DNA of 63,828 bases, the filler included, from Rozella allomycis CSF55 (Eukaryota), in assembly GCA_000442015.1 (NCBI GenBank). It is 9 parts of 9 records of this genome, joined end to end, with 100 filler letters (N's around TTAATTAATTAA, not from the genome) between each part and the next. Parts side by side here need not be neighbours in the genome. Positions count along the whole stretch, not along the records: positions 35,158 to 58,417 come from KE561313.1; 8 more parts are not named here. One strand, given 5' to 3'. A program made the position numbers and the translations under genes. The notes beneath the pieces were generated by a model, which ran no database searches, was not told where the DNA came from, and saw nothing but the letters and a program-made list of their open reading frames with translations. Positions 1,059 to 58,417 of the stretch are shown here, in pieces (the stretch's first letter is position 1; every line of letters begins with the position of its first letter).

Positions 1059-1147
1059 GTTATCCCAAAAACTAAAAAGTCCAAAATGGAAAATTCTGAT
1101 ACTGGATACAGAAACTAATGTTTATTTAAGTGATAGAATTATGTGAT

Positions 1148-1738: not shown

Positions 1739-1941
1739 NNNNNNNNNNNNNNNNNNNNNNNNNNNNNNNNNNNNNNNNNNNNTTAATTAATTAANNNNNN
1801 NNNNNNNNNNNNNNNNNNNNNNNNNNNNNNNNNNNNNNTTACCAAAGTGTCGTACGAAAAACAAAAATCCAGCAGTTCTACGAGCGAGGAAACCATAAAA
1901 ATTTAGTGGCTTGGGCAACATTGAATTTTATTTGTTATTTT

Positions 1942-2578: not shown

Positions 2579-2596
2579 GAGAAGACCCTGGCATAC

Positions 2597-15135: not shown

Positions 15136-15261
15136 TCAATAAACTCCGTGGAGATTAATCCTCCGGTTACCTACCAATTACCAATTCCAATTCTTATGTC
15201 TTCTGATTCTAATTCACCAGTTAACGTCACCTATTAATATCAGAGCTACAGGAGCTTAAGN

Positions 15262-26437: not shown

Positions 26438-26553
26438 GGNTTGCTAGTAAAAGAAAAAAATAGTTCATGGTGGCTCAGCCTGAAAATGGATCTACCAGGG
26501 TCAATGACACAAACGTCAATCTAATGATAAAGATAGTTTATTAATAATATGAA

Positions 26554-29547
26554 TTAACCGTCAGATTCTTCATCATCCGTATGCAATAATTTTCCTTTTC
26601 CGCCATCAATGAGCCACTTCAATTCTCTTTCTCTTCTTCTAGCCGCTTGAGCTTTCAATTGATTTCTAGTTAGTTTCTTCTTTTTATTCTTGACGTTTTT
26701 AACGACGCTATCATTGTTGCTATCTTTTTCAGATGAATTATTTTGCGAGTCTTCAAAAAGAGATTCTTCCGTTTCACGTTTGCCTGAAATGACAAGTTTG
26801 GAGTTGGCGACATTCCAGATTTCTGGACATAAAGCTTTGATGAATTCGCTGTTGTGGGAGATCATGACTACAGCGCCGCCCCAATCGCGGATTGCAGTTG
26901 CGAGGCCACCGAGAGCGTCTCTGTCTAAAAAGTTTGTGGGTTCATCCAGGACAAGCAAATGCGGATTGTTCCACATACAGGCAGCAATCACAACTTTAAC
27001 TTTTTGACCGCCAGATAGACCGCTGATTGAATTGTGAAGAGCGATTGACGGATCCAAACCGACATCTTGAAAATGCTTGCAAATTGCTTCATGCGTTAAT
27101 TCTCTGTATCCCAAACCTTCTCGTGAAGCTTCATAATCATCAAACGCTTGAACCAACTTTGAAAATCCATTTTCTATTAATTCTTCCCTGGGAATCCACG
27201 TGTTCCAGCGATGCTCTAAATTCTTCCATTTGATTTCGTATTGAAACGATTTCTTCAATTTTTGTCTACCAAAGATGCATTCAACGAAGCGTGATTGACC
27301 GTTAATTGAAATTGGCTTTTCCAACAACTTTTCTTCTTCAGGGGTTAATTTTCTTGATGCTTTTAAAAGAATTTCTCTGTCTTCTCCACCTTGATAACGC
27401 CAACGTAAATAAGCAGCTGGCGTGTCATCTTTGTGTTGCTCCAAATGATGAAATGCATACTGCGCCACATACCCAATGCGCAAATTTGGATGTTTTTCAA
27501 TCAAACCAGAGTCAGGGATTAATTCTCCAGTCATTAATTTAATTAAAGTTGATTTTCCAGCACCATTTTGACCAATAATGCCAACTCTTGATGAAAGTGA
27601 TAATTGACAAGAAACATTAACTAGAGCGGCTGTTTCTCTGCTTGGATATTTAAACGTTACATTATTCATCTTAAGAATCGCTTTCGTTTGGCTTTTCACT
27701 CCAGCAAGAAACGCTGGTTTAGGAAACACAAATTTCTCATCTGATGAAAGAGTGTAATAAGCTTTGGCTTCTGGTTTAATCTTAACAAATGCACTTAGAT
27801 TGCCAGGGTAGTTGACTAATTTTTTAGTTTCATAATGAATGATATCTGAACAAACATTATCAAGAAATGCAGAATCATGAGAAACAATCAAACAAGTAAT
27901 TTTACATTTCAAAAGATATTCTTCCAACCACTTGACATTAGTTTCATCCAAATGATTCGTTGGTTCATCCAATAATAAAATGTCAGCCTCCAAGAGAATC
28001 GCTTTTGCCAACTCCAATTTCATCTTCATCCCTCCACTCAAACTCTTCACTGGGAAATTAAACATTTCTTTTCCAAATCCAACTTTTATTAAAGCATTTT
28101 CAACTTTTTCTCTTTTAATGTTTTTAATTCTTTCATTTTCTAACACAAAATCAAACAGCGCTAAATCTCCATTCTCCCCTTGCAACGCATGCTCAACTAG
28201 AACAGTCTTCAACTCTACTGGAAACCCTTCCACTTTCCCTTCTGAAATCGCTCTCATCAACGTTGTCTTTCCAACTCCATTTCTACCACAGAGCCCATAT
28301 CGCCTTCCCTTCTTCAACTTCAAACGAGTTCTATTCAACAATAACATCCCTCCATAGCCCAAACTAAACTCACAGTTGCACAAATCATCTTCTGTATCAT
28401 CTACACCTTCCTCTGTATACAAATCCTTGTCTCGCTTCTTGAAAAACTCAATCACCCAAAGTCGCTTTTCCAAACACTCAAACGATAAAACTTTCTCCCA
28501 CTTTTTATTATTAAATTGTCTTTGCTTTATCAACTTCACCAACATCGGTACAACAAACTCAGCCTCTGGTATTTCCCACCTTACCAATCCTTCAATCTCT
28601 TCATCATCCATCTTAATTGCTCCAACTCTCTTCTTCTCCAATATATCCTTTGCCATCTGCGACAAATTTCTAATCTCAGGAAACGAAGCCGTCTCTATCA
28701 TTCTATCCAACCAAGGCAACAACATCGGTGCAAACACCTCCACATCATTCGCACTTCTCACCATCTCCATCAAATTCCTTATAATAATAACAGTCCTTCT
28801 CGTAGTCACAGACGACCGTATCGACAATGCTCGAACCAGCAATGGAACCAAAATCGCCAAAGCAGCCCTCGTCACATCAGCCACAAACGTCGTCGCCTCC
28901 AATTTCTGAATCACATTCTCCAACTCACTAGGCACGGCCATCGTATGGATCAAATCATCCATCAACGGCTGTATATCCGGATTCCCAACAACCCCGCCAA
29001 TCACCCGCATACTCTCCTTCGCAGCGTCAGACACCTCCGTCTTGATCTCATGCATACACAGCGATATCGGCTCGATAATGTCTGCCAAACAATTAGCAAT
29101 CAACTCGGGCTCATTCTTCGAAATCTCAGCCAACAACTTTACAGCAGCAACCTTCGCCTGCCACTTGCCATTCTCCATAATATCATACAACACAGGCAAC
29201 AAGTAACACTCCATCACAGTCGGAGGCAGCAAATCAACAAGCTCGCTAATCGCATTGCGCGCAGCTGCTCGCACAGGCTCGCCCTTGTCGCCATGCAGCT
29301 CCAAAATTACATCCACATACGCAAGCACCTGGGGCACTACAACTACCCCAACTTTTTTCAGCAATACTTCGAATCCTATCATCGCACTCTCTCTGTTAAA
29401 GCCGGACTTGTGTTTCGCATTCTTGGCAAGGTTCTCGAGAATAGATGTATCGTAGCTCTTTTGATATTCTATAGCTACTTTTTCAGCTGTTTCATAACAT
29501 TCTTCACTCGTATCGCAAATGTAGAGCTTTTGAAGAAGTTCCTCCAT
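26554..29547 (-). CDS. NEW1: eEF3-family ABCF ATPase, New1/Elf1 type
   Basis: HEAT repeats, two ABC cassettes, chromodomain insert GRQKLKKSFQYEIKW, C-terminal KKKKLTRNQLKA..RRR..W..TDDEE typical of New1/Elf1. Confidence 0.85.
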   Translation of the reverse strand: MEELLQKLYICDTSEECYETAEKVAIEYQKSYDTSILENLAKNAKHKSGFNRESAMIGFEVLLKKVGVVVVPQVLAYVDVILELHGDKGEPVRAAARNAISELVDLLPPTVMECYLLPVLYDIMENGKWQAKVAAVKLLAEISKNEPELIANCLADIIEPISLCMHEIKTEVSDAAKESMRVIGGVVGNPDIQPLMDDLIHTMAVPSELENVIQKLEATTFVADVTRAALAILVPLLVRALSIRSSVTTRRTVIIIRNLMEMVRSANDVEVFAPMLLPWLDRMIETASFPEIRNLSQMAKDILEKKRVGAIKMDDEEIEGLVRWEIPEAEFVVPMLVKLIKQRQFNNKKWEKVLSFECLEKRLWVIEFFKKRDKDLYTEEGVDDTEDDLCNCEFSLGYGGMLLLNRTRLKLKKGRRYGLCGRNGVGKTTLMRAISEGKVEGFPVELKTVLVEHALQGENGDLALFDFVLENERIKNIKREKVENALIKVGFGKEMFNFPVKSLSGGMKMKLELAKAILLEADILLLDEPTNHLDETNVKWLEEYLLKCKITCLIVSHDSAFLDNVCSDIIHYETKKLVNYPGNLSAFVKIKPEAKAYYTLSSDEKFVFPKPAFLAGVKSQTKAILKMNNVTFKYPSRETAALVNVSCQLSLSSRVGIIGQNGAGKSTLIKLMTGELIPDSGLIEKHPNLRIGYVAQYAFHHLEQHKDDTPAAYLRWRYQGGEDREILLKASRKLTPEEEKLLEKPISINGQSRFVECIFGRQKLKKSFQYEIKWKNLEHRWNTWIPREELIENGFSKLVQAFDDYEASREGLGYRELTHEAICKHFQDVGLDPSIALHNSISGLSGGQKVKVVIAACMWNNPHLLVLDEPTNFLDRDALGGLATAIRDWGGAVVMISHNSEFIKALCPEIWNVANSKLVISGKRETEESLFEDSQNNSSEKDSNNDSVVKNVKNKKKKLTRNQLKAQAARRRERELKWLIDGGKGKLLHTDDEESDG

Positions 29548-33897: not shown

Positions 33898-34996
33898 CTA
33901 TTTATTAAATTTCCATAATTTTATACTCTTGTCACCATCAGTCGAACCCGATGCTATCAATAAATTGGATGAACATGCATCCACCGCTAAAACAGGCCCT
34001 TATTATATTGAAATGTAAAAAAAATAATACCTGAGTGGCATTCAATTACAAATGAAATACTTTTTGATTGTAAATCCCATATGTAAAATTTGTTTTCATC
34101 AGACCCGCTAAGGACAAATTGTGAATTATCGTCAGCAGAGAAAAATGTTGAATAGCAACAGAATTTTTGATTTTTATGACCTTGATATGTTTTAATTGGC
34201 TTTGCGGCTTGAACATTCCATAATCTAATCTTGCTATCTAGAGATGAAGACAGGAGATATTTTCCGTTTGGCGAAAATTTCACATGAGATCTATTTTAGC
34301 ATAAAGAGGTGGTTACAATGGTGGGTTATCATTATCAATGAAGGTTTTGAGACAATTCCCGTTAGAGGAGTCCCAAATTCTAATAAGTCCATCATAACTG
34401 CATGAAGCAAGAAGGGTGCCATCCGGTGAATAATCTAGTCCTGAGACAGGATCTGCATGTGCGGGAAGTGTATTTAGACATTTATCTGATTATTGAGCTA
34501 AAATACAATAAATACTTCCTAGTGTATCCCAAATTTTAATAGTCTCGTCAAATGAGCCAGATGCTAACAAAGTTGATGCTGGATTAAATGCAACGTTGAA
34601 CACGTAATTATTGTGCCCGGAAAATTCTCTGATGCAAGATGACTATATTAAGAAATTTAACTATTTAATTACTGTTCTTTTATCCCAGACCATAACTCTA
34701 GCATCATCTGAAGCAGAGGCTATAAAATTCCCATCCCTTGACCAGCACAAATCTGATATTCCCTGTAAGTGACCTTTTAACGTCGCTGAACAATTTAAAG
34801 TTTCAGTGTCGGTTAATTTAATTTCTTTATCAGTGGCTATATCACAATGAGAAAGAAGGCTACCAGATGAAGCAATGAGATTTCCTTGAGGACAAAACTT
34901 AATGCAGGAAATGGAGCCTTCGTGAATATTCAAAGTATTTAGTATTGTTAAAGATTGTGTATTGTTTGTTCGGCTATGATAGAATGTTGAATTCAT
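33898..34996 (-). CDS. WDR5: WD40 protein WDR5/Swd3 (COMPASS)
   Basis: [47 protein letters not shown]; five short introns. Confidence 0.88.
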
Positions 34997-36106: not shown

Positions 36107-38839
36107 TTAAGTTATACGACGAATAGTAGCAGTTTTCTTTTTGACTGAGCCAGATATTTGAATTTGAGAATCATCTTCCAATTCACGTAGAGCTTCATGG
36201 AGTGCTGCTTCGGTAATAGGCTAGTTAAATAAGAGGGAAATGATTACAATAGTAGATTGAGCTTGAAGATCAGATAGAAGCTGATCAAATTTAATTTGTT
36301 TTGAAGATAGATTTGATATGATAGCAGAGCGTAATTTTTCCAAGAGATCTCTAGAAGCTGAACTTCTTCCAGTGGTGATTAAATCCATGTCTATTCTTCC
36401 GGTTGAGGGATCAATAGCATAGTGAAGAAGAGCGTTTTTAACAAGACGAAGGGCTTCTTGGACATCTTCAACATCAACAGACAAGGACAACCTAGTTAGG
36501 AATGTGAGAATGAGATACCTTGCTTTTGCATGAGCTTCAGATAAACGAATGAGAGATTCTAATTGTCTTGTTGTGGCACTAACAGTTTTTCCAGACCCAT
36601 TAACTTTTCTCATAGAGACGTAAGATTCCACCAATAAATCAGAAGCGTCATCAGAAATTATTGGTTTGATGTTTTCTCTTGCATAGGAAATAAAAGTTGT
36701 TAATTTGTTTATTGGCTATTAATGATAAAAGGAAATATATTACGATTGTTCCTTTGGTGATATTGTTGTAATCTTTAGTGTATAAAGAGATTAAATGATG
36801 TGCCAATCTTCTGTCAGTTTCAGCAGAGGGATTATCTAGCAAGAGATAGATTAGATCAAAGCGAGAGAGAAGAGTTGGTGGGAGATTTAGATTTTCTACG
36901 ATTGATTTATTTGTGTTGTATTTAGAATCAACAGGGTTAGCAGAAGCTAGAACAGAAGTTCTTGCGTTGAGAGTAGCAATGATGCCTCTCTTAGCAATGG
37001 AAACAGTTTGTTGTTCCATCGCTTCATGTAAAATAGCTCTTGTTGAATCAGACATTTTATCAAATTCATCAATACAACAAATACCACCATCGCTCAAGAC
37101 TAGAGCACCACTTTCTAAAACAACTTGATTTGTTTCTGGATCTCTTGTAATGTAGGCAGTCAATCCAACAGCTGAAGATCCTTTGCCTGAAGTGTACATT
37201 CCTCTTGGTGCCAACTTGTGAACATATTGTAATAACTGTGATTTTGAAACACCAGGGTCACCAGCTAATAGAATATGAATATCACCCCTGAATCTTGAAT
37301 TTCCATTTCTTTGAAATAATTTTGAAGTTCCACCAAACAATTGAAGCAACAAACCTTTCTTTATATCTTCCAAACCCCAGATAGATGGAGCCAAAGATTC
37401 ACTTAATGTTTCATACAGATTTGGAATTTGTTTAATTTCATTTACTATTTCTTCAACTCTTTCTTTTTCTTGAATCATTTCTTCTTCGTGGATTGTTAAA
37501 TAATCACTAGTGGTCATTTCTTCTTGAATCAATTTCATTCTATTATTCAATCTCTTCTTTATATGCAACACATCCAAATATGTTCTAAAAATAGATTTCA
37601 TCGTCCTCATTCTCGGATTCACCCTCACCGGCGCTGATCTATACATCCCCGTTATCTCTATACGATCGCCAGGCCTCACAACATCCACCAAACTATCATA
37701 CACCATCAATGTAACTGTATGCGGTGTCTGCCCTTCTGGTATTTCATCTATTCTAAACTTCACACTATATCATTACCAGGGGTTTCTTGCAATCTAATAA
37801 TTTGTTTATCTGCAAAAATACATCTGTTATGAACAAGAATCATACTGTCTGGACTGTTACATCCATCATTGGGGCACTTAGATGGCTCACTTATAATACC
37901 CTTGTTAATCTCAACATTCATTCCAAATCCACACACACAACATTGAAAATATCCTATTATTATCTCTACTAATTTTTACCTTGACGCATATCTGGAATAA
38001 TCCCACTGCATCGGATAACAAGCCCTTTAACAGACACTAAATTATCAATATCATTGGGATCCAATTGTCTCATATTAGCAACCTTCTCCAAATTAAACGG
38101 TCTAACTTGAATAACACCTCCATTTTCTCCACTATCGTACATTCTGTCATACAATTCATTAGTCACCGTGTCCATAATCGCAATAATCTCTTGCGGAAAT
38201 GCAATCAATTGTTCATAAAGCTCACTTGTCTCTTCCCACTCTCTCAAATCATTCGTATCAAGCGACAAATGATATATCTCAGTTTCATGTATCTGTCGCA
38301 ACATCTGCACATACACACCTTCCCCTCCTGGAACCGCCTTGTATCCCACAAAAAATGACTTGAATGTATTATACACTTTATTATATTGTATATCAGTTCC
38401 CCATATAACTCTAACACCTTCAGGATGCTCTTCCTCCACCTGCATCGTTTCTCGCATTTCAGCATCTAATTGCTGTCTACGTGGCACTCTATTAGACATC
38501 ACACTCTCAAAACTATATATCCATCTTACTTGTTGTTTTCCTCACTTTGCATTTGAGGTAAAGAACTCACAAATCCGTCAGCCAAGTCTGGGCGTCGTGC
38601 TGAACTCGCTGGCTCCCTAGCTGACGACGATAATCCAGGATAAACTAGTGGAGACGAATTTCCATCCATCTTATCACTCACCATATTTGCTATTTTCTTT
38701 TAAGGGTGCACAGTTACCATCTGTATTCGCTCCTTCATTTTGGTTTTTACTGCTTGCAATGCTTGCTTCAGAAAATGGCATATTATCTATGTCATTTTTA
38801 TATCACAGTTTTACTTGTAGAAGGATCCGTATTAACCAT
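36107..38839 (-). CDS. MCM4: DNA replication licensing factor MCM4
   Basis: [42 protein letters not shown]; about seven 26-29 nt introns; start inferred. Confidence 0.95.
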
Positions 38840-38977: not shown

Positions 38978-39373
38978 CTATTTTTCTAATGCCTTTTGTA
39001 ACTGTATAGCATCTAGATTGCTGGTTGCAAGCTAATTCAATGAAATAGAATATAATTTACCATATCTAGCAATATGTCTATTTTAAATTTCAACATTTGA
39101 TTTTCTTCCAAAAGCTGTCGGTTAATTTCTTTAAGCTGTGATGCTTTCTTGGTAGCTGTATCGCCCTCTACAGACACTATTTTCAGCATCATTAAATTCA
39201 ATACCAAGATTCCAGCAGTTGTTTTCATAGGAGAGTTGATTGCCATCCAAATTCAAAGTAATCGGAACTCCAATATCTCCAAATTGTATATCCCGAATGT
39301 CCTTAATAGGCGATTTAACGAAACTGTCTGAAAATCTCCTTGTTCTTTCCTTTACTGTTTCCCATGTCGACAT
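38978..39373 (-). CDS. CBY1: Chibby (basal body/ciliogenesis)
   Basis: ITLNLDGNQLSYENNCW and LLEENQMLKFKIDILLDML; two introns. Confidence 0.8.
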
Positions 39374-42290: not shown

Positions 42291-44916
42291 TTATTGATTA
42301 TAATAATTGTTGAAATCTAAACGAAAAGCCAAAAATTTTAATTCTGGAGAGCCATGGCAAGACAAATCATTCATGAACTGTTTCAGATTTTTCTAATTAA
42401 CAATGAAAGGAACTTCATTTACTTTGAAATTTTGAAGATTTTGTGCAAGATTTTGAAATAGTTTATTGTAGATGAGGGATTCTTGATTTTTAGCCTCTAA
42501 ATCTGCTCGTTCATCTTGTAGTGTTAAACCCCAAAGACCTTGAGAAGAGCGTTCAAATTGCAAGAGTTTTACTTGTTGTCTTCTGGAATGCATTTGATGC
42601 GCTAAATTTAAGAAAGAATGTTGAAGATTTATTTGTTCAAAGATGATAGAAAACAAGAGTGTTAAAGATTGATAATGAGACACCTAGAAGAAACAAGTAA
42701 GAAAGAATTACGTTTAAGAGGCATCCCTTTTCTATTGTAGATAAAAACATGTCGTGAGAAGTGATGAGTTTATCAATGTCGATTTCACGTTGAGAAATTT
42801 TGTCGAGAAAATCAATCCACGACAATTCAATGACTTCAAATTGAATGAAATATTGTAATTGATTTAAAAAATGATTCATTTCAGCCAAGAGAGTGTGAAT
42901 TTTGAGATTTTCAAAATCAATGTCATCTTTCAAGGCTGAATAGATGTGTTTATTAGACATGTGATCTTTATAAATGTTTATTAGATTGTGCTCTAATCTT
43001 TTAATTCTCCAGAGGAATTGAAACAAGCGAAGATATTTCTCCATTGCATTTAAATCTATTATTGTGTTTAAAGGGAAATTTATGTGAAAATCTAAAGAAA
43101 AAACATCCCATCCAGTATCCTGGTTAGAAATTGGCAACAGCCGAACATCCAATCTTTTAAGAATTTCTTCATGATCAAATTGAGCGTTTGAACTTCTGAT
43201 TGCTGTTTCTAAAATGCCTGTTAAATTATGACGAAATAGATTTTCAGCTGATTGATCAAGTCTATTAGAAAGAAGATCCAACATTGTTTGAACAAAATCA
43301 CCTTGCCCCAGCAACAAATATTTCTTCAATGCTTTGAAATTGTCAACTAGACGATATTTCTTCAACAAAATATTCTTCAATTCTTCACTCCTTTCATAAT
43401 GAAGTATTTCTATTTCTTCAGCCATTTCAGAATAAAATTCATCTTTATTATCTTTATTTTAATAGAAATTACAATCACAATTCAAAATATTTTTTTCTGA
43501 AATTTCATGATTCATTGCCCTCATAAAGTTTATTGATTTCCCAAGGCTAAATATTTTCTCTGCTGCATTTGTTGGTATAAAACATGGAAGATATTCTTTT
43601 CTAAAATAATATTTATTTCTCCAAATGTTATCGCTATTATCTTTGCATGCAACAAAAAACTCATCAAATGGATCTTCAACCACCCCTTCATTAATCCACA
43701 AATTTATCATTTTAAAAAATGGCTTGGTGGCTTCATTTATCAATCTTTCCATCAACGTTTTCACTGACACATCCCCATGAGTAGTAAAGTTATACAAAAC
43801 TGTCAACAAATCGCTCCCTTTCAAAACTTTTAATATTTTTAAAAATTTATTACGAGAACAAAGACGGCAAAGTGAAGACAAAAGTTTCAATTTGTAAATT
43901 TCCATTTGACTAGCAGAAATTATTCTCTTCAATGAAAATAAAGAATCGCTATTGAAATGACTCTCCAAAGTCGCAACAAACTTCAAATACGATTGAAGTT
44001 CTTCATTCAATGCAAATGCAAAACTCTTAAACATTAAAACGATTCCAGTTTACTTGATTCATCAATCCAACTGTGTTTCCTTTCTTACTTTGTTCAATGT
44101 ACTCGTTTATAATTTTATAATTCCATCCACTTTGAGCTAATTCCATCAACAATCGTCTTTCAGTATTTCTTAATGGTTTCTTCATTTTGTATTCATTTTG
44201 AACATTATCAAATCCTATAAACATCCCATCAATGCCCTGCATCAAAAATAACCCTTCTCTAACCAATTCACTTTCTTTATTAACTCTTTTCATCTTTATC
44301 TCTTTAAATTTCTCCCAGGCTTTTTCTTGTGATTCTATTTTCTTTTCAGGTATCGGTAATGATACCATTTCTGATTCCTTTAAAATGAATCCAACATTAT
44401 TATTTTACTTTAAAACTAGTTAATTCGAAGCTCTCTAGAAATGATGGACCTTCCTTTGCTCAAATTTTAATACCTAGCTTACTCCAACTTGAACAGGCTC
44501 AACACCACCTCTTTGAATCTGTAAAAATAAATACAGTATTTCCCATTTCTTATCATACTTGACTTTGTCGGCTAACTGTGCAATTCTAATCGCTCCATCC
44601 ATATGTTCTTGTTGTACCACTATTATATGTCATCTGTAAAGATTACTTTTTTTCTGAATAGCTTGGATCACAGAATTTTCATCTTTGACTACAGAAATTG
44701 CGAGTTTTGACGACAAAAGTTGCTGCAAATAAAAGACTAGCGGCTTCAGTCCTTCACTATCTTCTTTTACTTTCAGAAATTGAATCACAAGCTTTTCTAA
44801 CATCATATTCAACACATTTCTGCTGGGTGTTCTATCTTCATAGTTTGCCTTTGTTCCTAACATTCGCATACAATGTGGCTGGGAATCTTCAACCTCTCAA
44901 TCAAACTTACCACCAT
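42291..44916 (-). CDS. TUBGCP3: Gamma-tubulin complex component 3 (Spc98/GCP3)
   Basis: KKYLLLGQGDF, LFRHNLTGILETAIRSSNAQF, GWDVFSL, RLDFN; multiple short introns; start approximate. Confidence 0.9.
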
Positions 44917-45103
44917 TTTTATCTTTATTGTTTATATAGTAATGAATTTCATGTCTGTATCTTTTCGAACTAAAGATTTGCAAGTACACTCAAGTGTTAA
45001 TAAAAAGTTGGCATTATTCTTTTAGCGCTAACATTTTCATTATCCATAATTCATTTCCATAATTAAAGTATTTGATTGTTTCTTTATTTATATTTGTATA
45101 TCA

Positions 45104-46533
<1,430 letters not shown>

Positions 46534-46614
46534 ATAAAACAATACATCGCGTATTAAAAACTTTACTAGTTTTCTTGAAATTCTTTTAATATTTAACACA
46601 TTTTTCAATTCTTT

Positions 46615-47033
46615 TCAAGTCGAAAGATTCTCCATTGATTCAACGATATTCTTCTGAAGCGCAGTGGTCTTTGAAACAAAAACAAAGAACATTACTGTAC
46701 TTGAAAGTTCACTAATTGTAATATCCTTCTTTCCTATAGCGAACAATAGTAGATTTGGCAGTTTGACTTGGGTAGACACCAGAATCCATTCGTCCGATTC
46801 GATGATAATTAGATTTGTGCTATCATCTTGAGTAAACCAACAAGATAGTTGAGCAGAAATCATATCAATTGATACCAACTGACATTTTTCTGCCTTGATA
46901 ACAACAGAAGCGTTTTTGGTGCAAATAAGACTTTAAAGACAGAAAGAGAATAGGTTTACAAAATTTGGGGAATCTTTTCTGAGATAGCAGAGTTTAGGAT
47001 AGAATTTATCTTCTTTGAATTAAGCAGCTGCAT
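46615..47033 (-). CDS. Roadblock-fold protein, LAMTOR2-like
   Basis: Spliced MQLLNSKKINSILNSA...LIIIESDEWILVSTQVKLPNLLLFAIGK...ALQKNIVE follows the LAMTOR2 layout. Confidence 0.5.
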
Positions 47034-47076
47034 CCAACGGAGACGAATTTTACAATTTTGATTGCAAATTTACAAG

Positions 47077-47414
47077 ATGGTAAAACGAACAATCCCACCC
47101 ATTAATTTGGAGCATGCGCCAATGTGTAAAGATTTATATGATGATTATGTCAAATGCTTTCTTGAAAGTGGTATATTTGGTCGATTCTTGTCAGAGTGTA
47201 AGCATAAAAGGAATTTGGTGGAAAGATGTAGGGGTGAGCAAGTAATGATGGAATGTCATGTTAATTAATGTAGTTTGAAATAGCAAGAGAAAAGAATTTG
47301 AAGCTTGGATTAGCAAGGAAAGAGAAGATGGCTCGTTATCGAAAAGTGGAGAATGAATATTTACAAAAAGAAAATGAAAAGGACAAGTTATATAGGTATA
47401 AGAATAACCTTTAA
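47077..47414 (+). CDS. Twin CX9C COX assembly protein (Cmc2-like)
   Basis: C-x9-C...C-x9-C; one intron. Confidence 0.7.
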
Positions 47415-47521
47415 TAAAGTTCAACGTTGACTGTTGATGACAATACAGCAGTTTTTTCATAAAAAAAGAATTAATGACTGGAAATAACATTCATTCTTGA
47501 ATAATGAAATATAAAGTTTTA

Positions 47522-49957
47522 TTAGAAAGACCAATTTGCATCAACAGAAGTAGCCCATTTGAATTTATCCCTTAACCCTTTGTTGAACAATTTTTCGATT
47601 GGCACGCTATGCAATTTAGACCAAGCAAATGAAATTCTAGGATCAATGTAGTTAGTTTTAGATGTAGAGAGGGCAGTAGTTTTATTTTCATCCTAGAGTT
47701 AAAGTTATCATAAAGATTGTTACTCTATCAGTAAGAGCCAATTTCATATTTTCAATTCTGTTTTTTAACGTAAGAATCTTCTTCTCCAACCTTTCAGGAG
47801 AAAGTTTAGTTTTTTTTCGTGGCTCTTCTAGATCTTTCTTTTTTCTTTTTGGACTTGATTCTTCATCTGAGTTTGAATCTTTTTCCACATCTACTTTTTT
47901 ACTTTCTTGGGATTCAGATTTTGTTTGTTCCAATTTTATTTTCTTTTGTTCTATTTTCTTTAATTCCAATTCTTCTTTTTCAATCTTTTTTCTAGCAATG
48001 ACGTCATCATCTAGATCACTTTCCATTTCCGTAATTTCGGGTCTGTTTTTGAATGTTTTTTCTTCAACGAGATCTAATAATTCCAATCTTAAAAGATATT
48101 TTTCATATTTCAACATTAAGATCTGTAAACAATCAGATGAAATTTTACTTTTTCTTTCAATTTTGTCATTGATGTATCATGAGATTTTGGAATAGATCGT
48201 TGATGGTTACATAAAATGGCTACTTGTCTATTCGCTCTGTTATAAGCTAAAATTTTCTCTGCCACCGTCCCATCGCTTGGCGTGTTTTTTAATTCTTCTT
48301 GGAAAGTGAATGACGCATTGAAAGTACGAAAAACTTTAGCAGTTAACCCTGGCATTAAAGATGTTAAATATTTATTCAGAGAGGCAGTCTTTATCAAATT
48401 TAATCATAATAATTACCGTCAAAAGATTAAACAAAGGTTCGTCCTTCTTTTTTCCTTTCTTAAATTCTTTTAAATTTTTGTGAATTATTTTATCAACTTC
48501 GACTTGATTGTAATAACGAATTGAATCTTTCCCAAGGAAATCAAAAATGACTGTGTTATTTTCAGCTAATTCGATATGTTCGCATCGCAATGAACAACAA
48601 CCAACAGTATCCGCTTCATCTTCACCTTTTTCATTCCCAGCTCTAAGCGCAAGTTTATCAATCAACCATAACGCTGTCGCTCTTTGTCTAGTCAACAAAT
48701 CAGAATCACGCAATTCTTCAGTATTTTTCCTCCTTATGTCCAAAACATAATCCTTCAATTCTCTTGCTTTTTCAAATTTCTTAAAATCAGATTGTCCCTT
48801 CAGTGATGAGCCCGCGGCCAAGAAAACATACTTGGGCGTCATATTCACTGTATCTTCCCATGTGGCAAGCCATGTCACTTGGTTATTATGAATTATATCT
48901 CTCCAAGAGTGTCCAGCAGGAGGGTCAGGTATCTTGCATGTCTTTCCTATATTTATGGTGACATCTTCGGGTCGTATTCTTTTCTTTATACAGCCAGCCT
49001 TTGGATGTTTTCCTCGACCTCTGAAAAGTCCAGGAGGTTCAATCCGGAAATTTCCAACCTTCTCAATTCTACCGTCAATACTTGCTGTCATATACTTTTC
49101 TTCCATTTTTAATTTTTCTTGCTTTATTTTCTATCAATATAAATTATGTAATATACCTCCTTTTCTTCCTTTGTCATATTCTTTTTTTCATCTCGCAGCT
49201 TTTGAAAATATTCATACATTAATGTAAAGTCACATTTTTCAAGCTTTAATATCCTTTTTTTCTATCACTAAATAAATGCAGATTTACATTCTCTGATGTC
49301 AGCACAGATCTAAATCCATCAAAAAAGTTCTTATTGAAAATCGGATTCTTCACATAGTCTGTTTCCAGCATGTGAGCATAAAATCCTGCTATTTCCTCTT
49401 CTTCAGCATTTAGTTTGACCATCTCACCTAAAATCATATTCATAAATTGTCGTTACCATCATACTTTAATGGAACCCCATGTGGTTCATACTCTGGAGGA
49501 AACAAGACACCTGAATGTTCAAGCGTTGTCCATTTAATGGAATCGTCAAAATCTCCTTCCCACCACTTATATTCATTGTTTTCTCCGCCGTTATCATTTT
49601 CACTTTGTTCTCCTTTGTCCTCTTTTGTCTTTGCATTTGTAGATTCATTTTTATTGTTCATCTTATTCTTCGTCAATGAACTCAAGGGAATATCATCATC
49701 ACTTTCTACCGAGTTTTTAGTTTTCGCTTTGGGTTTCTTTGTTTCCTTAATATTCGCTTTCTTTCTTGGAGTGCTCTACAAAAACAAAATTTCTTAATGC
49801 TTTACCCTTCGTCGCCTAATCGTAAAATCTTCATCGCTGTCGACTCCTTTAGATTTGCGTCTTTTAATAATTTTAGACTATTGAAAACAAATTTGAAGAT
49901 TACTAAAGGAATGTCTTCTTCACTGGAATCAACAGACGGCGTGTCTTTTGTTGACAT
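47522..49957 (-). CDS. TOP1: DNA topoisomerase I (type IB)
   Basis: [35 protein letters not shown] active-site Tyr. Confidence 0.97.
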
Positions 49958-50038
49958 TGAAAAGAGGTGGCGAAGTCAAAGAAAACCTATTCCTGTTTTA
50001 TATAAAAATAGCGACGCCAATTACAAAATAAATTTGGT

Positions 50039-51787
50039 TTATTCAATTATTTCATACGACCATATTCTTGCTCTACAGTCACCCGATCCAGTTGCGAAAA
50101 GCGAGCCATGAGGACTTTGCGTCACTGAAATCACTAGATGAAAATAGAAAACACATTGTACCAGAATTTTTATGACCTTGAAGAATAGCATGCATTTCAG
50201 CCGTCTGAGGATCCCAAAATTGAACCCTGAATAAAGTCAAAGGATAATAGTTACGATCTGTCTTTGGATCCAGATATGGCCCACATTCCATCATTTGAGT
50301 ACGCAACAGAAAGAACATAATCTTTGTGTCCTTCAAATGTGTGCTTGCAAGCGTCTTTGATTTCAGAGTTTAAATCCCAAATTTTTAAGGTTTTATCAAG
50401 AGATCCAGACAAAATCATCTGACCGTTAGGGGAAAACGCAACTGAATAGACAGAATCTTTATGTCCTTCAAGTTTATCAATCGGCTTTCCACTTTCTGCG
50501 TCCCATAATCGAATCGTTTTGTCGAGAGAGCCGGCGGCTATTAACGTTCCATCGGGACTATACGCTACTGATGTTATTCCGCCCTCTTTTTGACTTCCAT
50601 CGTCACTAGAAAGAATATGAACAGCCTATAAATATATCTAAAAATTATTACTTCCCCAGATTCAACGTCCCAAATCCTGGCAGTCCTATCGCCACTTCCA
50701 GATATGACGAAACGTCCATCTTTCGAAAACTCCAGGGAATAAATATCTTGCTCATGACCGTGAAATATTTTCTTTAGTGTCTTTTCTTCCAAGTCCCATA
50801 TCTATTAACAATTTTTTTTTCGAAAATTTACCCTAACTGCCTTATCTTCAGCCCCGGTAGCAAGAAATTTGCCATCTTTACTGAAAGCCACAGATCTGAT
50901 GTATAAATCTCCTTCTCCAGCATTTTCATCTTCTAATACACTCTCAAAATTTATAATATCCCTTACGCTATCTTATCACCAGTTTCAACATCAAATATTT
51001 GAGTTGTTTTATTACAACCGGTAGCTAAAAATTTGGCATCATCACTAAACTTCACACAGCACACTACACTCAAATGATCAATCGAATGATGTAATTCAAT
51101 GTTAATTTTTCGTGGCATATTTGGATTGTATCTATTGGAAAATAATATTAAGCGTTACATGACATTCCAGTCATTTCCCTCTTTTTTATGAGTAGTAGGA
51201 ACTTGGCTCGGGTCGATATTATGAAAAAATGATTTCTTTGGATCAGGCAAAGCCTTCACAACTTGGGGTTGTGACTTTGGCACCATAGGTTTCACAGGAA
51301 ATGTTGGTGGTACAGAATTTGATTGAATATCTTATTAAAAATAAATACAATAATTTACTTGACGCTGGTAAAGAAGGCAGAGAAACTGACGATGAACTTT
51401 CTTCCAACCTAGGGCGTTTTAGGGTTACTGCTGGATCTCCCCCTCTCGCTTCTAGTTCTTTTTTTAATTTAAATATTTCGTCCTCATATCTTAAAAAATC
51501 AGACTCTACATTTTACTGTTGTTTCATTTTTAGATGAGCTCTCTCCAGCTCATAGACGTTTTTTTGGATCTGGATAATTTCATTTATTTGAGATTGAACT
51601 AAAAATAAGACAGACTATTTTTACATACCTAGAACTACTAAAAATATCAGCAAGTACCTTTATGTTCAAAAGATTCTCGTTGCACCGAAAGGTCTTGTGT
51701 AGATGTCTCATATTCCTGTTTTAGTGAATCCAATAGCTCATAAAAACGACTGGCTGAAGTTGTAGCCGCTGGCCGATGCCCATACAT
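50039..51787 (-). CDS. TUP1: General transcriptional corepressor Tup1
   Basis: Tup_[38 protein letters not shown]40 repeats; includes twin introns 51599-51657. Confidence 0.92.
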
Positions 51788-52068
51788 GTTCTTACCCTTG
51801 TCAAAACATTCTCACGCGTTGATAAATTTTTTTTCAGTGATCTAATTAGTCTCAAATTAAAATTTGGGAAATATATTTATCTCCAGAATCTCTAAAGACA
51901 AATTCCTTTTACAACATCTTGTAGTGCTAAATATTTCTACTATTGACATCGACCTTAAATTTAGAGTGAATTTTTTATATTTTAATTAATCCAATTCGTT
52001 TAATTTATAATTTTATTGTCTATTTTGCCCCGGTTTTGTACGGGCTAAAGTATCTTGAAAATTCGCAA

Positions 52069-52569
52069 ATGACAAGACCAACTGAGAAAAGGCATGTTTC
52101 GAATGGCCAAAGAAGCGATGACAGAAACTCAAATTTTCAAAATAAAAGAAGAATATTTGTGGATAATAAAAAAAGTTTGAGTGAGAGGTAAAGAATTAAT
52201 CATCTTTAATATAGGTAAATACCTTAGTAGTTACTTGAAAGGTTCCAGTCAGTTTCAGAGGAGCGTCGCAAAAATATGATAAGTAGAAAACGCGATAGGT
52301 TTTCAGTACCTGAAAAAATGCCAATGAAAAGGGACTTGAGGCCAAGAGGCTCGAATTCAAATTTTCACGGCAGAGGAAATTTTAGAGGTTCATCAAGTGC
52401 ATCAAGAAGCAAAAATCTATCCAGAATCTCGAGAAATAATAAAATGCCTCTTGACAAAGAAAAGCTCGATGCGGATTTAGACAAATACATGATGAAAAAT
52501 GAGAACTTCGCAAAGGCAAAGCTAGACGAAGAGTTGGATAATTACATGGCTATGGACGAGAAAGAATAA
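52069..52569 (+). CDS. CHTOP/FoP-duplication RNA-binding protein
   Basis: SLSERF motif after splicing, RG-rich middle, duplicated LDADLDKYM/LDEELDNYM. Confidence 0.75.
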
Positions 52570-52633
52570 ATAAATGCCAATTTTTACCAATCTTCTTTGT
52601 TTATTTTGTTACTTCGCCACATTGACATAAGTT

Positions 52634-53375
52634 ATGCATTTATTTGGTAGGGCGAAGCCAAAAAGCACTCCTAAAGATGCTATAGCAACTCTAAGAGATG
52701 CACTGGAAATGTTAGATAAACGAGAAAAACACCTTGAGGTGAGGTATAATAATGAAACAAAAATGGCCCAGCAAAATGCTAAGAATAAAACAGGTAAAAA
52801 CATTTTCCCTCAAATTACACAGGTAAATTAAAACCTCTTAAGTTAGTTAGTGGCTCTAATGGCGCTAAAACGCAGAAAACAAATCTCAAATGAAATGGCC
52901 AAGGTTTCGGCGTCCAAAATGTCTTTAGAAGCACAAATGATGACGTTGGAAAATGCGAATCTGAATCTGGAAACCCTTAAGGCAATGAAGACAGGTTCTG
53001 AAGCACTGAAAAACATCCATGGTGCCATGTAATATATTCTCAAAGCTGTTATTTAGGGATATAAACAAGGTAGATGCAACCATGGATGAAATTCGGGACC
53101 AAATGGATATTGCCAATGAAATTTCTGAGGCAATCGCACAACCTCTTGGAAATGTTCTTGATGAAGACGAGCTATTAGAAGAGCTAGAAGAATTGGAGGC
53201 CGAAGCCTTGCATCAAGAAATGACTGAAAAGCCCACAACTGTCCCTAATCTACCTAAACCTGGTAATAGTCGATTATTTCATATTACAACAGTTAAAGTC
53301 GGACAATCCTCATCTGAGGAGAAGTTGGAAGATGAAGATGCAGAATTAGAGTTACTACGTGCATCCATGACTTAA
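52634..53375 (+). CDS. SNF7: ESCRT-III subunit Snf7/Vps32
   Basis: AIATLRDALEMLDKREKHL, ALKRRK, DKVDATMDEI, DEDELLEELEEL. Confidence 0.93.
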
Positions 53376-53568
53376 TTAAACAAAAACAATAAATAAACAT
53401 AATACCAGCTCTCCAGCTCTAAAATATAGTAATTTTTGCTATGATTTGTCTAATGTAACAAAGATGGTAGGTACTCATAATTTTTCATATATATATATTT
53501 AATATGCATTATCAGATTAAACATTTTATGATTCTCATTTCAGACAAAAGGTAAACAAACCACGGTCA

Positions 53569-54888
53569 ATGAGGACAGTCAGTCTGGTAATGGTTGCATT
53601 GCTTATGTTCCCAAATACGGTATACACATCTTCATGGCTTTCATGTCCCTTATCTTTTAATCCAAACAGCAAGAGAGGTGGAGAGTTGATAGGACCATGC
53701 GAAGTTCCTGTAGAACCAGTCGCCGTAACCCAAGTCCGGGCGGGTGATAGACTTAAAGTTGGTTGGCCTTCAAATAATAACGGCGGGGGATATGTTCGCT
53801 TATCTTTGGTGCCGGAATCTCAGTTCGATGATGCATCCGCTTTCGAAAAAAATGTGCTCAAATTAGGTTGTTTTGGACATGACCAACGTTCGGGTAAATT
53901 TAAATCCGGTGTATGTGTTCATCCTTGCAATGGTAGGCCGGGCTGTCAATTTCAGTCTTCTGTAAATGACAATGAACGTTATGATACAACAATTTCAATT
54001 CCTTTCAATATTCCCAATGGTTTATACATTTTGCAATGGGTTGCATTGATAGGAAATAATGTTAGGCCATACTACAGTTGTGCTAAACTTTCAGTAACAG
54101 GCGGGAATGTCAGTATTAATTGTAACGTGCCAAAGTCCATCAACATTCCAACTTGTATAAAGGCTTCCGGACCAACATCGAGTCAGATTTTGCCGGAAGG
54201 ATCAAAATATGGAAACTTCTGCTATGGTTCTCAAGGATCATCTAATATTGATTATAACATTAGCCAGAAACCTGCAAATGCAAATTGTGATCCCAGGGTT
54301 TCTTGTTCTTTATCTGTTTCCGAAAGTATTTGTAAACAAGAAATAACGCAAAATTTTGATTCCAACAACCCCTTTATTAAAAGTTGTCCCATTGATTCGA
54401 CTGCAACAAAGACTACGACAATGTCATCAACTGTTACGTCTACCCTTACTTTATCCAGTAGCACATTTACTACACGTCCATCGACGACTACATTGATTAC
54501 AACAGTAACAAAAAGTACTACCAAGATTTCATCGACTACTTCTGCAACTAAAACTACTATTCCGACAACTACTGCAACAACAGTAATTAAAACTACTACA
54601 AAGATTACGTCAACTACTGAAACTACAACAAACGTTCCATCAACCTCTCCAACCAAGACTACCAATTTACCGACATCTACTCCTCCATCTCCGACCTGCC
54701 CAATAAATGGACAAAAGTGCAACATATCTCCAGATAAATTCTTCTGCGTAGGAAAGGCTATTGGAAGATGTGTTTCTAATCAATATGTAGTGTTCAACTG
54801 CGCGCCTGGGACAAAATGTAGAATTGTAAGTGGAACGGCGATATGTGATTTTGATGACAAAAAACCTGACGCGCCTTGTTTATTTTAA
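53569..54888 (+). CDS. Secreted EnP1-like / LPMO-like Cys-rich protein with Thr-rich linker and CBM19-like C-terminal domain
   Basis: Signal peptide; AGDRLKVGW..YVRLSLVPE..FEKNV..YILQW..YYSCAKLSVTGG; CVSNQYVVFNCAPGTKC. Confidence 0.65.
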   Translation: MRTVSLVMVALLMFPNTVYTSSWLSCPLSFNPNSKRGGELIGPCEVPVEPVAVTQVRAGDRLKVGWPSNNNGGGYVRLSLVPESQFDDASAFEKNVLKLGCFGHDQRSGKFKSGVCVHPCNGRPGCQFQSSVNDNERYDTTISIPFNIPNGLYILQWVALIGNNVRPYYSCAKLSVTGGNVSINCNVPKSINIPTCIKASGPTSSQILPEGSKYGNFCYGSQGSSNIDYNISQKPANANCDPRVSCSLSVSESICKQEITQNFDSNNPFIKSCPIDSTATKTTTMSSTVTSTLTLSSSTFTTRPSTTTLITTVTKSTTKISSTTSATKTTIPTTTATTVIKTTTKITSTTETTTNVPSTSPTKTTNLPTSTPPSPTCPINGQKCNISPDKFFCVGKAIGRCVSNQYVVFNCAPGTKCRIVSGTAICDFDDKKPDAPCLF

Positions 54889-54924
54889 TAAAATATAAAT
54901 ATTATAAGAAATGTTCGGTGTTTA

Positions 54925-56897
54925 TTAAGTTTGAGTTAAGTTGTCTATCAGATGATTGTGTTCTACGGAAGGAGGCTTGTTATCATGACATGTTTCAATT
55001 GACTTATACCAGGCATCTTCCATTATGTCGTTAACGTTTATTCTCTTTTTACAATCCGGTTCAAGAATCTTAAACATAAGTTCTTTGGCGCCACTAGGTA
55101 ACCGGGCTAATGGTTCAAACTGAATACCTCTGTGCTCAACGAAATAACAATAATTAGGGTCTTCAATAGTAGCTTTGGCCCAAGGTATACCCCTAAAAGT
55201 TGTTGCGTAATAAATGATCCCACACGCCCAAATGTCAACTAACCGAGCGTCATACTCAGTTTGGGTGAATTCTTCTGGTGCAATGTACGGAGTTGAGCCA
55301 CAGACCCCTTTAGATAAATGAGGCTTCTTCTCCCAGCATATTCTAAACACTTCGGAGACTCCAAAGTCAGTTATCTTTAGCCTTCCATGCATGTCAATCA
55401 ATAAATTTTCAGGTTTCAAATCTCTATGAGCAACACCAACTGAATGAAGGTAACTAACTCCTTGAATAAGTTGCTTGAAACAGCAATCAATTTCTACAAC
55501 CGTCATCTGCCCACCACGAATAATCGAATACAAATCTCCACCTTTTGACAAACAAAGGAAGGTTATTTACCTGAATAGTATTCCATCACCTCATACCAAT
55601 GGCTTCCATCACGAATAATATCCAAAGTTTCAACAACATTCATATGATGCAACATGGACCCTATGCAATATTCGGAAGTCATTTTCTTTATGTAGTCTCG
55701 ATACGCTTCATCCTTTTTCTTCTTTCGAAATTCTTTTATTGCAAATACTTTCTCTCCAGCTCCACGCCTAGCTAATCTCACAGTACCACCAGCGCCTTTT
55801 CCTATAACCTTAGTGCTAAATATGTGATAGTCATCGAATGTATGAGGTTCCATTGGAAGTAGTTTAGGGTTGGAATTGGAAGCGGAATCATCATCATGTG
55901 CTTGTTGAGTTTGCTTTCTTTTAATCTTTGGTGAATTCAAAAGTTCTTTGATTGGATCTAAAATTCCTTTTTTATGCACTGAAACATCATGATGAGATCT
56001 AAACAAGTCAGTTTGACTGCCGCTTTTCGATAAAGAGGGTTCTGGAGTTATTCCACGGGAATTATCGTCATCGTTTGAAGGGCTCAACTTGAGTGTATTC
56101 TTATCTTTATCATGATCGTTATGCGAATGAAAATCACTCTGGGAGGATGAGTTTAATAAATGACTAATATGAGTCTTGGAAAACAATTTCTTCATGTCAC
56201 TTTGCTCATGAACAGAATCAGATGACGATCGTTCAGTTTTTCGTAAAATATTCGGTGATGCATCCCTGGAGGAATGACTTGTTATTCCATTAGATCTTGA
56301 AGAAGCGGCGCGCTTTAGTTTCGGTGAAGTAGCACGGCTAGAATCCGCCGGTGTATGAGCCCCAGATAAACTAAATAACTTAAACTTAAACCGATTTTTC
56401 TTTGTGCCTTCTTGTGTAGTTGACTCTTCACTCTCAATTGATTGTTCGCATTCCATTGTATGGTCTTTTTGCCGGTGGACGCTGGACTCATGACTTTCAG
56501 ATGAAATGCAACCAATCTACTTACCTTTCGAATGAATTGAATCAGGTATAATTGAATGAGATGAATCAGCATTCAATAACTCTTTAATATCTTCATTTTC
56601 ATCGACAGCGCTATTAGTGCTTTTTATAAACGACGGCAACTTTTTCATACTGCTATTGCTTCTTTTTCTGTCCAAATATTTTTCCAAATTATTTTTGGAG
56701 TTATTCCAATGAATTATATTTCCAAGCAAATCATAGGCCACGTCCGAACCAATGAGGAATGGCGTTTCGCATTTACAAACCTCAGCGCACGATGAACAAA
56801 GCCAAAAAGCATCAGAGAATTGGCCTCTGGCGGAAAATTCAGCACTAGTTAATGCGGCAGTACATATCAATGGCATATTAAATTCCAACAAGCCCAT
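54925..56897 (-). CDS. Ser/Thr kinase, Sat4/Hal4/Npr1-type; 5' extent uncertain
   Basis: [44 protein letters not shown]. Confidence 0.85.
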
Positions 56898-56981
56898 CTC
56901 GACGCCAACGAAAATGACGCCGATTGGCGAATGGAAAATTCGGTTTTAGAAAAAACAAAGCAATACGATATAAAATATTTA

Positions 56982-57855
56982 TTATTGCACAAAACTATTA
57001 TCTGAGTATTTTTCTATTCTATGCAGAATTTCTATACAATCAAACATATACTGATACCTTCGATACTTTTCGAGGATACTTGAAAATCTTCACAGAACTT
57101 ATATCAGAATTGTATCAGTTGGCTTACCAATATTGGTTTTATATTTATGCCTTGAGAATGTAAACTTGCTAAAATGCAACTTACTGCTATCTCCCTTCCC
57201 GAGTATTTGGTGTAAAACCTGTCAAGGAAGCTTTGTGACAAAAATAAATGAAATTACGAATCATTAGCTATTCTCATGCAATATTCAATTAAAGAATGAG
57301 CAAAGCGCTCAAAGTCATATGCTGAATTAAGCAAGTAACCGGTATTTACTATTATTAAACTTTTTTTTGACGGGCAATAATGTATCACGTAAGTATCGCA
57401 TGATATAAAAATGAGGCATATCTACGTCAAGATCAAAATTGAGAATGCGCAAAACTAACAGTTCGCTTTCGAAAATAGAATCCCTGATCTTCCAGTATTC
57501 CTATATTATAGAAGTAGTAAATTTACATCGCCAATAGATATGGGTTGGTTCCCATCATGAAAAATAACTCTATCTTATTTCGATGTCAGCATCCCTACCT
57601 ATATGCTGAATTTATAATGTTTCGAAGGTTATGTAGTTCTTCTGTAGTTTTGGTACCCAGATAAAAGCACGTAACCGCTAAAAGATACTCCTCAACGTGG
57701 AAGTCGTTAGCCTTTTCCATGTACTCTCTTACTCTATGGAAATAATATTGAGAAGTACATATCGTTATTGTCGAGCTAATTATAAAGAAATTTTTCATTT
57801 ACACTCTTAACGATTTCCCAAGGTAACGTATCAGGAGGACTGATGAGAGTCTCAT
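56982..57855 (-). CDS. Transcriptional cyclin, cyclin Q/FAM58-like
   Basis: YYFHR, CFYLGTKTTE, EYWKIRDSIFESELLVLRILNFDL; several 26-30 nt introns. Confidence 0.7.
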
Positions 57856-58009
57856 GTCTAAGCCTTCTGCCGGTAATGCAAAAAAATCACTATTCAGGCA
57901 AAAGTATCTGGATTAGGATTATATTCACAAATCACAATTATAATGCATTCGATAAATTTGATTTCAAGTGCCGAAATACTCTCAACATCAATGACATGGG
58001 TCACAACGT

Positions 58010-58417
58010 ATGAAAAGGAAATTACATGACTCCAACCTTACTGTCTTTGACATAAAGGAGTTAAATTGTAATTACAAGGTTCATTATCAACAGCCCTTGC
58101 TACTTGGTTTTTTCAGCTATGATAAAGAAAGAGAACTCCGTATTGGGTGTCAGTCTTCATTAAATGTGTACCACGAAGCTATTTTGCCTGTTGATTTAAA
58201 CTCAAATCAAGAAAATTTTATACAAAAAAGGGAGCAACCAGAGCAACTTGATGCAGTATTTGAGACTTTGCTTTATAACAAAAAAGTTCTGATGCATTAT
58301 TTGCAAAAACGACCTACGATAATTTCTTGGAGAGGAATTATGACAAAACTGATGAACGCAGAAGATTCAAAGAATGATTTTTCTCTTAAAATAGTGTCCG
58401 TTAATGTAAGTCTTTAT
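58010..58417 (+). CDS. RAI1: Rai1/Dxo decapping exonuclease (5' part, truncated by gap)
   Basis: YQQPLLLGFFSYD, ISWRGIMTKLM. Confidence 0.75.

Follow-up and report, generated by a model that had tools for sequence, protein, structure and literature searches.

Does the 59-nt gap between the first two exons of a Tup1-type gene in Rozella allomycis CSF55 (GenBank assembly GCA_000442015.1) hold one intron or two? In the initial annotation, the gap was read as twin introns of 29 and 30 nt that meet at an AG/GT boundary. We examined this reading against the window, that is, the whole 63,828-nt stretch of DNA analyzed here, and against homologous and published systems. The existence of a 59-nt, two-unit structure in the gene is confirmed. 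Two abutting introns are the best-supported reading of that structure, with putative use of the inner splice sites.

Host gene and required length of the excision

The identity of the host gene (Table 1) follows from its domain content. Exons 1-3 each match part of Pfam Tup_N (exon 2 scores 29.7 bits, the cut-off being 28.7), and exon 8 carries a WD40 match (E 1.4e-37). The predicted product is a Tup1/Groucho-type corepressor, with an N-terminal Tup_N region followed by a WD40 propeller, and the name TUP1 given in the initial annotation fits this content.

On the minus strand, the gap runs from 51657 to 51599, with GTACTT at its 5' terminus and TTTTAG at its 3' terminus. After base 29, it reads TTCTAG/GTATGT (junction at 51629/51628), splitting the 59 nt into 29 + 30. 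Both the coordinates and the letters of the annotated split, with AG/GT in the middle, were reproduced on this strand, as was the post-splicing peptide: excision of all 59 nt joins ...CAT AAA G to TT CAA TCT..., which yields ...SFEHKVQSQINE....

Table 1. Positions of the Tup1-type gene, its composite gap and the other sites discussed
Feature	Positions	Strand	Description
Tup1-type gene	50039-51787	minus	Gene model; 10 exons; CDS 1470 nt = 489 codons + stop
Exon 1	51658-51787	minus	130 nt; 3' end ...CAT AAA G, phase 1; Tup_N positions 1-32 on residues 14-42
Unit 1	51629-51657	minus	Complete 29-nt mini-intron; donor GTACTT, acceptor TTCTAG
Inner AG/GT junction	51627-51630	minus	Zero-length exon, or ratchet point; read from sequence
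Unit 2	51599-51628	minus	Complete 30-nt mini-intron; donor GTATGT, acceptor TTTTAG
Exon 2	51517-51598	minus	82 nt; begins TT CAA; Tup_N positions 35-60 on residues 1-26
Second composite	52794-52850	plus	29 + 28 nt; Snf7-like gene 52634-53375; homology-supported
Third composite	52188-52241	plus	27 + 27 nt; gene 52069-52569; both donors GTAAA; probable
Fourth composite	2228-2282	minus	27 + 28 nt; RbfA-like gene; frame continuity only; probable
Long predicted gap	56465-56524		60 nt; in no artefact class

The protein profile sets the length of the excision. K43 and the split-codon V occupy Tup_N positions 33-34, with zero residues lost or gained across the gap. (At the following border, exon 2 stops at profile position 60 and exon 3 begins at 62.) Because the Tup_N profile is continuous across the gap, exactly 59 nt must be removed. 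Removal of unit 1 alone gives GGT ATG TAA, and removal of unit 2 alone gives GGT ACT TGC TGA, each ending in a stop. Judging by Tup_N continuity and by the insertion-free alignment to the orthologue described below, nothing of the AG/GT junction should be left in the mRNA.

The same mature product would arise if the gap were one ordinary 59-nt intron, spliced in a single step from GTACTT to TTTTAG, and the homology evidence fits both readings. The inner AG/GT would then go unused, being either a chance match or a leftover from the duplication or insertion of a mini-intron.

The intron position in an orthologue

Orthologue intron positions, which the initial annotation had named as a means of checking the twin introns, were compared with a metagenome locus. 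A metagenome scan returned 80 loci at identities of at most 55%, and one of them (L078; metagenome contig, region 800-3600) alone also matches the Tup_N exons. It is a true Tup1 orthologue (tblastn E 4e-69). Its introns are roughly 80-200 nt and rich in T runs. Between ...ATG AAA A and TT AAC, it has a single intron of 199 nt (952-1150), at the identical codon and phase to the Tup1 composite site (CAT AAA G / TT CAA), and the alignment across the 59-nt site shows no insertion. The next intron (CAA CA / A TAT GAG, phase 2) is common to both genes to the base, four further L078 introns lie at or near Rozella positions as judged from tblastn breaks, and L078 has extra introns inside the counterpart of the long Rozella exon 8.

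This match shows that the intron position is old and is compatible with one step or two. The ancestral state at the composite position was most likely a single intron, and a single intron at this very position in L078 is a point in favor of one-step removal.

Intron lengths and splice signals in the window

Crude gene models were built across the window from codon log-odds, splice-site weights and a small per-base intron penalty. These models lean to short introns by construction and carry no RNA support; their artefacts were judged by eye, and the models used still fused neighboring genes and omitted the last Tup1 intron. Those scoring >20 contained 69 predicted introns, of which 47 were 24-32 nt, 2 were shorter, and 20 were >33 nt. 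The lone 24-nt prediction among the 47 turned out to be part of a composite in a Snf7-like gene (see below). Modeled host genes included those for topoisomerase I, an MCM, a ThiF-type E1, a gamma-tubulin complex protein, a NatB subunit, a RhoGEF and a kinase. In the Tup1-type gene itself, the remaining eight introns measure 27, 28, 27, 26, 30, 26, 28 and 28 nt. On these models, the window belongs to a tiny-intron regime, with a narrow length distribution near the lower splicing limit. At 29 nt, unit 1 is within the local 25-32-nt range.

The local donor consensus is GTAA: A occupies +3 in 45 of the 47 introns and +4 in 41, while five of these tiny introns have T at +4 and none has C there. Among local donors, the outer GTACTT ranks at the 4th percentile and the inner GTATGT at the 9th. 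The description of GTATGT as a strong consensus in the initial annotation thus does not hold here; it carries over what is customary for yeast and does not describe the Rozella genome. Both composite donors are weak by local standards, a point that counts against two-step removal and for a single step. The local acceptor is roughly A-T-A-G. No branch-site consensus was visible across 48 introns, in which YTRAY was found in 16.

Once one wrong intron had been dropped and the last Tup1 intron added, 42 of the 47 tiny introns had one and only one AG whose end lay 25-32 nt from the donor, the first bases of the next exon being counted too. Five introns had two such AGs, and the first was used in four of them. 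This pattern looks like avoidance of competing AGs, and intron length seems to carry much of the recognition information. In the composite, AGs end 20, 23, 29, 43 and 59 nt downstream of the outer donor, and 14 and 30 nt downstream of the inner donor. The sole AG within 25-32 nt of the outer donor is the inner acceptor (29 nt), and the sole AG at that distance from the inner donor is the outer acceptor (30 nt). Each unit therefore obeys the local single-AG rule. One-step removal would have to skip the AG at 29 nt, a distance at which other introns in the window are cut. Preference for the first AG is itself barely tested in the window, where two AGs occur in only 5 of 47 introns, and this weighs against two-step removal.

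Other features of the 59 nt and its surroundings were searched as well. The gap folds no better than its shuffles (z -0.79, with 48 of the 200 folding equally well), leaving an intron-shortening hairpin unsupported, and no Rfam family was found in the whole window. Against 44000-58300, metatranscriptome contigs labeled as the same species matched in 13 short pieces of ~30 nt (90-99% likeness); none lay on 49724-54970, and none provided a joint.

Chance and recurrence of composite gaps

We next asked how often a central AGGT would cut a stretch of this length into two parts of 24-32 nt each. This occurred in 385 of 20000 mononucleotide shuffles (1.9%), in 844 of 20000 dinucleotide shuffles (4.2%), and in 95 of the 4991 GT..AG stretches of 50-64 nt present in the window (1.9%). 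When an A after the GT was also demanded, the counts fell to 86/20000 (0.4%), 233/20000 (1.2%) and 31/4991 (0.6%), respectively. A central AGGT is thus expected by chance in about 2-4% of such stretches, as one-step removal would allow, and the Tup1 composite taken alone is only suggestive against a chance level of ~0.4-4%. A chance origin becomes unlikely because composites recur within the same window, and a rate of 2-4% per site cannot yield the recurrence observed.

To look for recurrence, 7966 frame-bridging candidates were tested for decomposition into units of 24-32 nt. The screen returned 22 rows, from which four sites were accepted, Tup1 included (Table 1). The clearest of the others is in the Snf7-like gene, 1.1 kb from the Tup1 composite. 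Its exon 1 aligns through residues 15-52 with positions 4-42 of the solved Shrub chain 5j45_A, and residue 1 of exon 2, when that exon is read from 52853, matches position 45. T53, the split-codon V and A55 of the joined protein fill 5j45_A positions 43-45 without a gap, and Snf7 profile positions 43-98 fall on exon 2. Against yeast Snf7 (8wb6_A), the composite model shows a 2-residue gap. We also considered read-through of unit 1 combined with a 24-nt intron, and rejected it, as 9-11 false residues would be inserted. The crude model had made this reading, with unit 1 translated as about ten false residues; gene finders that disallow abutting introns will mis-model such genes.

The third and fourth composites are graded as probable. 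At 52188-52241, removal of either unit alone leaves a stop. The downstream (second) exon of this gene, which is transcribed divergently from the Tup1 gene, carries FoP_duplication (E 3.3e-15); no family match was found for the upstream exon, and the composite rests on the open frame. In the weakly RbfA-like gene, a weak RBFA match (E 0.016) lies on a downstream exon. A third intron-like unit adjoins this composite, extending to 2202. An 81-nt triple at 2202-2282 in phase 0 was rejected, as it runs into a stop.

All eight units of the four accepted composites are 27-30 nt, all eight donors begin GTA, and three of the four composites lie within 1.3 kb, in three adjacent genes. The remaining rows of the screen were set aside. 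At four sites (five rows), one of the supposed units is coding: 33999-34060, 37954-38006, 49401-49456 (variant 49398-49456) and 829-885. Another five rows only lengthen or shift the composites at the probable sites (one at 52159-52241 and four within 2196-2282). The other six sites (eight rows; 19337, 45202, 54614/54617, 27087, 25552 and 6496/6499) have no case of GTA at both donors.

Other long predicted gaps

The Tup1 gap is one of the 20 predictions >33 nt. Of the 19 others, nine are in a copia-like retroelement that is internally repetitive and contains Ns (RVT_2 E 9e-79). Three, at 40, 51 and 50 nt, result from fusion of a small upstream gene to the MCM gene, where the small gene ends at a stop after a 29-nt intron. 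For two more (41 and 35 nt), tiny introns of 26 and 29 nt would also keep the frame. One of 61 nt extends past a stop codon, and three of 131, 146 and 142 nt join unrelated protein segments and were taken, by eye, as fused models. The last, of 60 nt, is listed in Table 1.

Some of these regions merit a description of their own. The copia-type element (10071-15237, plus strand; RVT_2 E 9e-79) contains internally repeated protein segments and scattered single Ns, and may be a collapsed or mis-joined assembly repeat. At 26413-26558 (minus strand), a long ORF that finishes with an ABC-type motif stops at an N and a ~27-nt near-duplicate, after which an unrelated frame follows; this break is probably an assembly join rather than an intron. 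A small coiled-coil gene lies at 38980-39373 (minus strand); it has two introns, of 28 and 29 nt, and its end is so close upstream of MCM that simple models fuse the two genes.

A second listing collected block pairs that can be joined only by a GTA-starting gap of 34-120 nt. None of its eight rows decomposes into units, and every row was explained as an artefact (retroelement, antisense of a continuous ORF, a span swallowing a modeled exon, or an intergenic stretch). Among the checkable gaps >33 nt in the window models, we found no plain long intron that stands up to these checks. Each was either an artefact or a set of 27-30-nt units with AG/GTA between them (two homology-supported, two probable), a result at odds with one-step removal.

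Removal in two steps or one

The best reading of the 59 nt, from sequence comparison, is that of two complete spliceosomal mini-introns arranged head to tail at one old intron position. We consider it somewhat probable that these are independent introns around a zero-length exon, removed by two separate reactions. In such a scheme, recognition of an intron would depend chiefly on a GTA donor followed, ~25-32 nt later, by a single AG. The outer donor would be paired with the inner AG 29 nt away and the inner donor with the outer AG 30 nt away, and the two reactions around the zero-length exon would clear the gap. Either order is possible, as the primary transcript already contains the four sites in complete form and no signal is interrupted. 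Two spliceosomes hardly fit on 59 nt simultaneously, so the reactions would be sequential. Removal of the upstream unit first is slightly favored, since unit 1 is transcribed first and the inner donor would then stand behind AAG, not TAG. Local donors have A at -3 in 26 of 47 cases and T in 5 of 47; with A the commoner base, the regenerated inner donor (AAG before GTATGT) would be somewhat better. We infer both the use of the inner sites and the order of the steps.

Several observations speak for two-step removal. Excision must be exact to the 59 nt, and either unit left alone gives a stop. The eight other Tup1 introns are 26-30 nt, in keeping with the narrow local length range, and each unit of the gap follows the single-AG rule. 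Composites recur, with one homology-supported case besides Tup1 and two probable ones, and the Cryptococcus neoformans BOT1 intron described below offers a fungal precedent. On the other side, the two probable composites rest on frame and not on homology, and spliceosomes are normally limited in how short an intron they can remove but not in how long, which makes removal of the 59 nt in one step chemically plausible. If the second unit was inserted recently, its intact inner sites would need no selection.

One-step removal also draws on the microsporidian Encephalitozoon cuniculi, in which, according to PMC6349667, splicing works better on a 76-nt intron than on the miniature introns; a tiny-intron lineage can evidently handle a longer intron. 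Set against this, the two halves of the Tup1 gap have no residual similarity, and an inner site that was merely left over should by now have been lost along with it. Taking these points with the skipped AG at 29 nt, the recurrence of composites and the fate of other long gaps, we judge a single ordinary intron of 59 nt to be the less likely reading, though the main rival.

A 20-nt intron ending at the first TTTTTAG, a 9-nt micro-exon and a 30-nt intron would together also preserve the reading frame, which is open and would add VVL; the AGs ending 20 and 23 nt from the outer donor permit such an arrangement. The Tup_N positions, though, are contiguous and leave no space for three residues, L078 aligns without an insertion there, and a 20-nt intron is below the accepted local 25-32 nt, all of which renders a micro-exon very improbable. 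That the 59 nt is not a spliced feature at all, the gene being a broken copy or misassembled, is scarcely credible: the window does include numerous Ns or masked bases as well as one or more messy repeat regions, but no N is in or near the Tup1 gene, its 10 open exons match Tup_N and WD40 and are accompanied by eight regular introns, and the two halves of the gap are unlike, hence not a duplicated-read artefact.

Returning to two-step removal, a broader model can be stated more tentatively, and we would place it a little on the doubtful side. The spliceosome of this organism may be restricted to AGs lying ~25-32 nt beyond a GTA donor, in which case longer introns would be chains of mini-introns removed singly, with length quantized at ~28 nt. 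If the model is true, old introns (cf. the 199 nt of L078) would survive miniaturization either as one unit or as a stack.

Origin of the second unit

A recent tandem duplication would leave two similar halves. We aligned the halves of the four composites and compared them with 1081 random local intron pairs, for which the share scoring at least as high was 0.54, 0.54, 0.54 and 0.14. The global alignment score of the Tup1 halves, 3, equals the median of the random pairs. As the halves are no more alike than random intron pairs, there is no sign of recent tandem duplication. The inner AG/GTA appears to have survived while the remaining sequence of the units shows no common origin.

The second unit could have arisen through new inner splice sites within a shrinking intron, through an old duplication that has since diverged, or through insertion of a mini-intron at the AG/GT of an exon-intron border. 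For the Lipomyces stwintrons, PMC7138796 likewise proposes new splice sites within an existing intron as one origin. The position common to the composite and to the 199-nt L078 intron ties such stacks to intron shrinkage, not only to intron gain.

Comparison with known systems

Stwintrons of filamentous fungi and Lipomyces are described as two U2-type units removed by consecutive reactions (PMC7138796). Like them, the Tup1 gap is a complex intervening sequence of two units. In the stwintrons described in that source, the internal intron interrupts the donor, branch site or acceptor of the external intron, which forces the order of removal, whereas the Tup1 units stand side by side. We rejected a stwintron identity, as each Tup1 unit comes with a GT and an AG of its own, and the signals of one unit are not interrupted by the other. 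For the same reason of arrangement, tandem and not nested, the gap is no twintron in the published sense. The initial term twin introns therefore stands in its substance, with two abutting introns as the best-supported reading, and is loose as a name.

Intron gain by tandem duplication of an AGGT-containing segment (Rogers-type) would produce two adjacent introns with a shared AG/GT. Such a duplication would give the boundary seen in the Tup1 gap, but it predicts similar copies. A recent tandem-duplicated intron of this type was rejected: the Tup1 halves are dissimilar, with 54% of random pairs scoring as high or higher.

Tiny introns of narrow length are known from ciliates (Paramecium, Stentor, Nyctotherus), nucleomorphs and microsporidia (for microsporidia, PMC6349667). 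The Rozella introns resemble them in being about 25-32 nt with little signal beyond their ends. Stacks of mini-introns placed head to tail were not described in the titles, abstracts and passages surveyed from the ciliate, nucleomorph and microsporidian literature, and one ciliate paper made no mention of recursive splicing or of adjacent, zero-length or twin introns. Among the best 25 of 652 matches to a query on introns that abut one another, no relevant paper was found, and no literature linking Rozella with short, tiny or mini-introns was found in a search that did not extend to the Rozella genome paper.

If the inner sites are used, recursive splicing would be routine for anything beyond a minimal intron and not a rare device for giant introns, and an upper as well as a lower length limit on intron recognition would be implied. 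The gap would then offer a simple natural system, 59 nt with four sites, for a spliceosome re-engaging a junction it has just made.

Recursive splicing at zero-nucleotide exons is documented at ratchet points in long Drosophila and vertebrate introns (bioRxiv 10.1101/224170; PMC8605326). In Cryptococcus neoformans, the 375-nt BOT1 intron is reported to be removed as 210 + 165 nt around a zero-nucleotide exon (bioRxiv 10.1101/224170). As in these cases, an acceptor and a donor are juxtaposed (AG/GT) inside the Tup1 gap, at TTCTAG/GTATGT, and stepwise removal is the mechanism proposed for it. The known recursive cases split long introns of hundreds of nt to many kb into pieces of non-standard size. 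The Tup1 pieces, by contrast, are full minimal introns of modal length, open to removal in either order, and it is this setting, standard-size minimal introns adding up to 59 nt in total, that sets the gap apart from the systems compared here.
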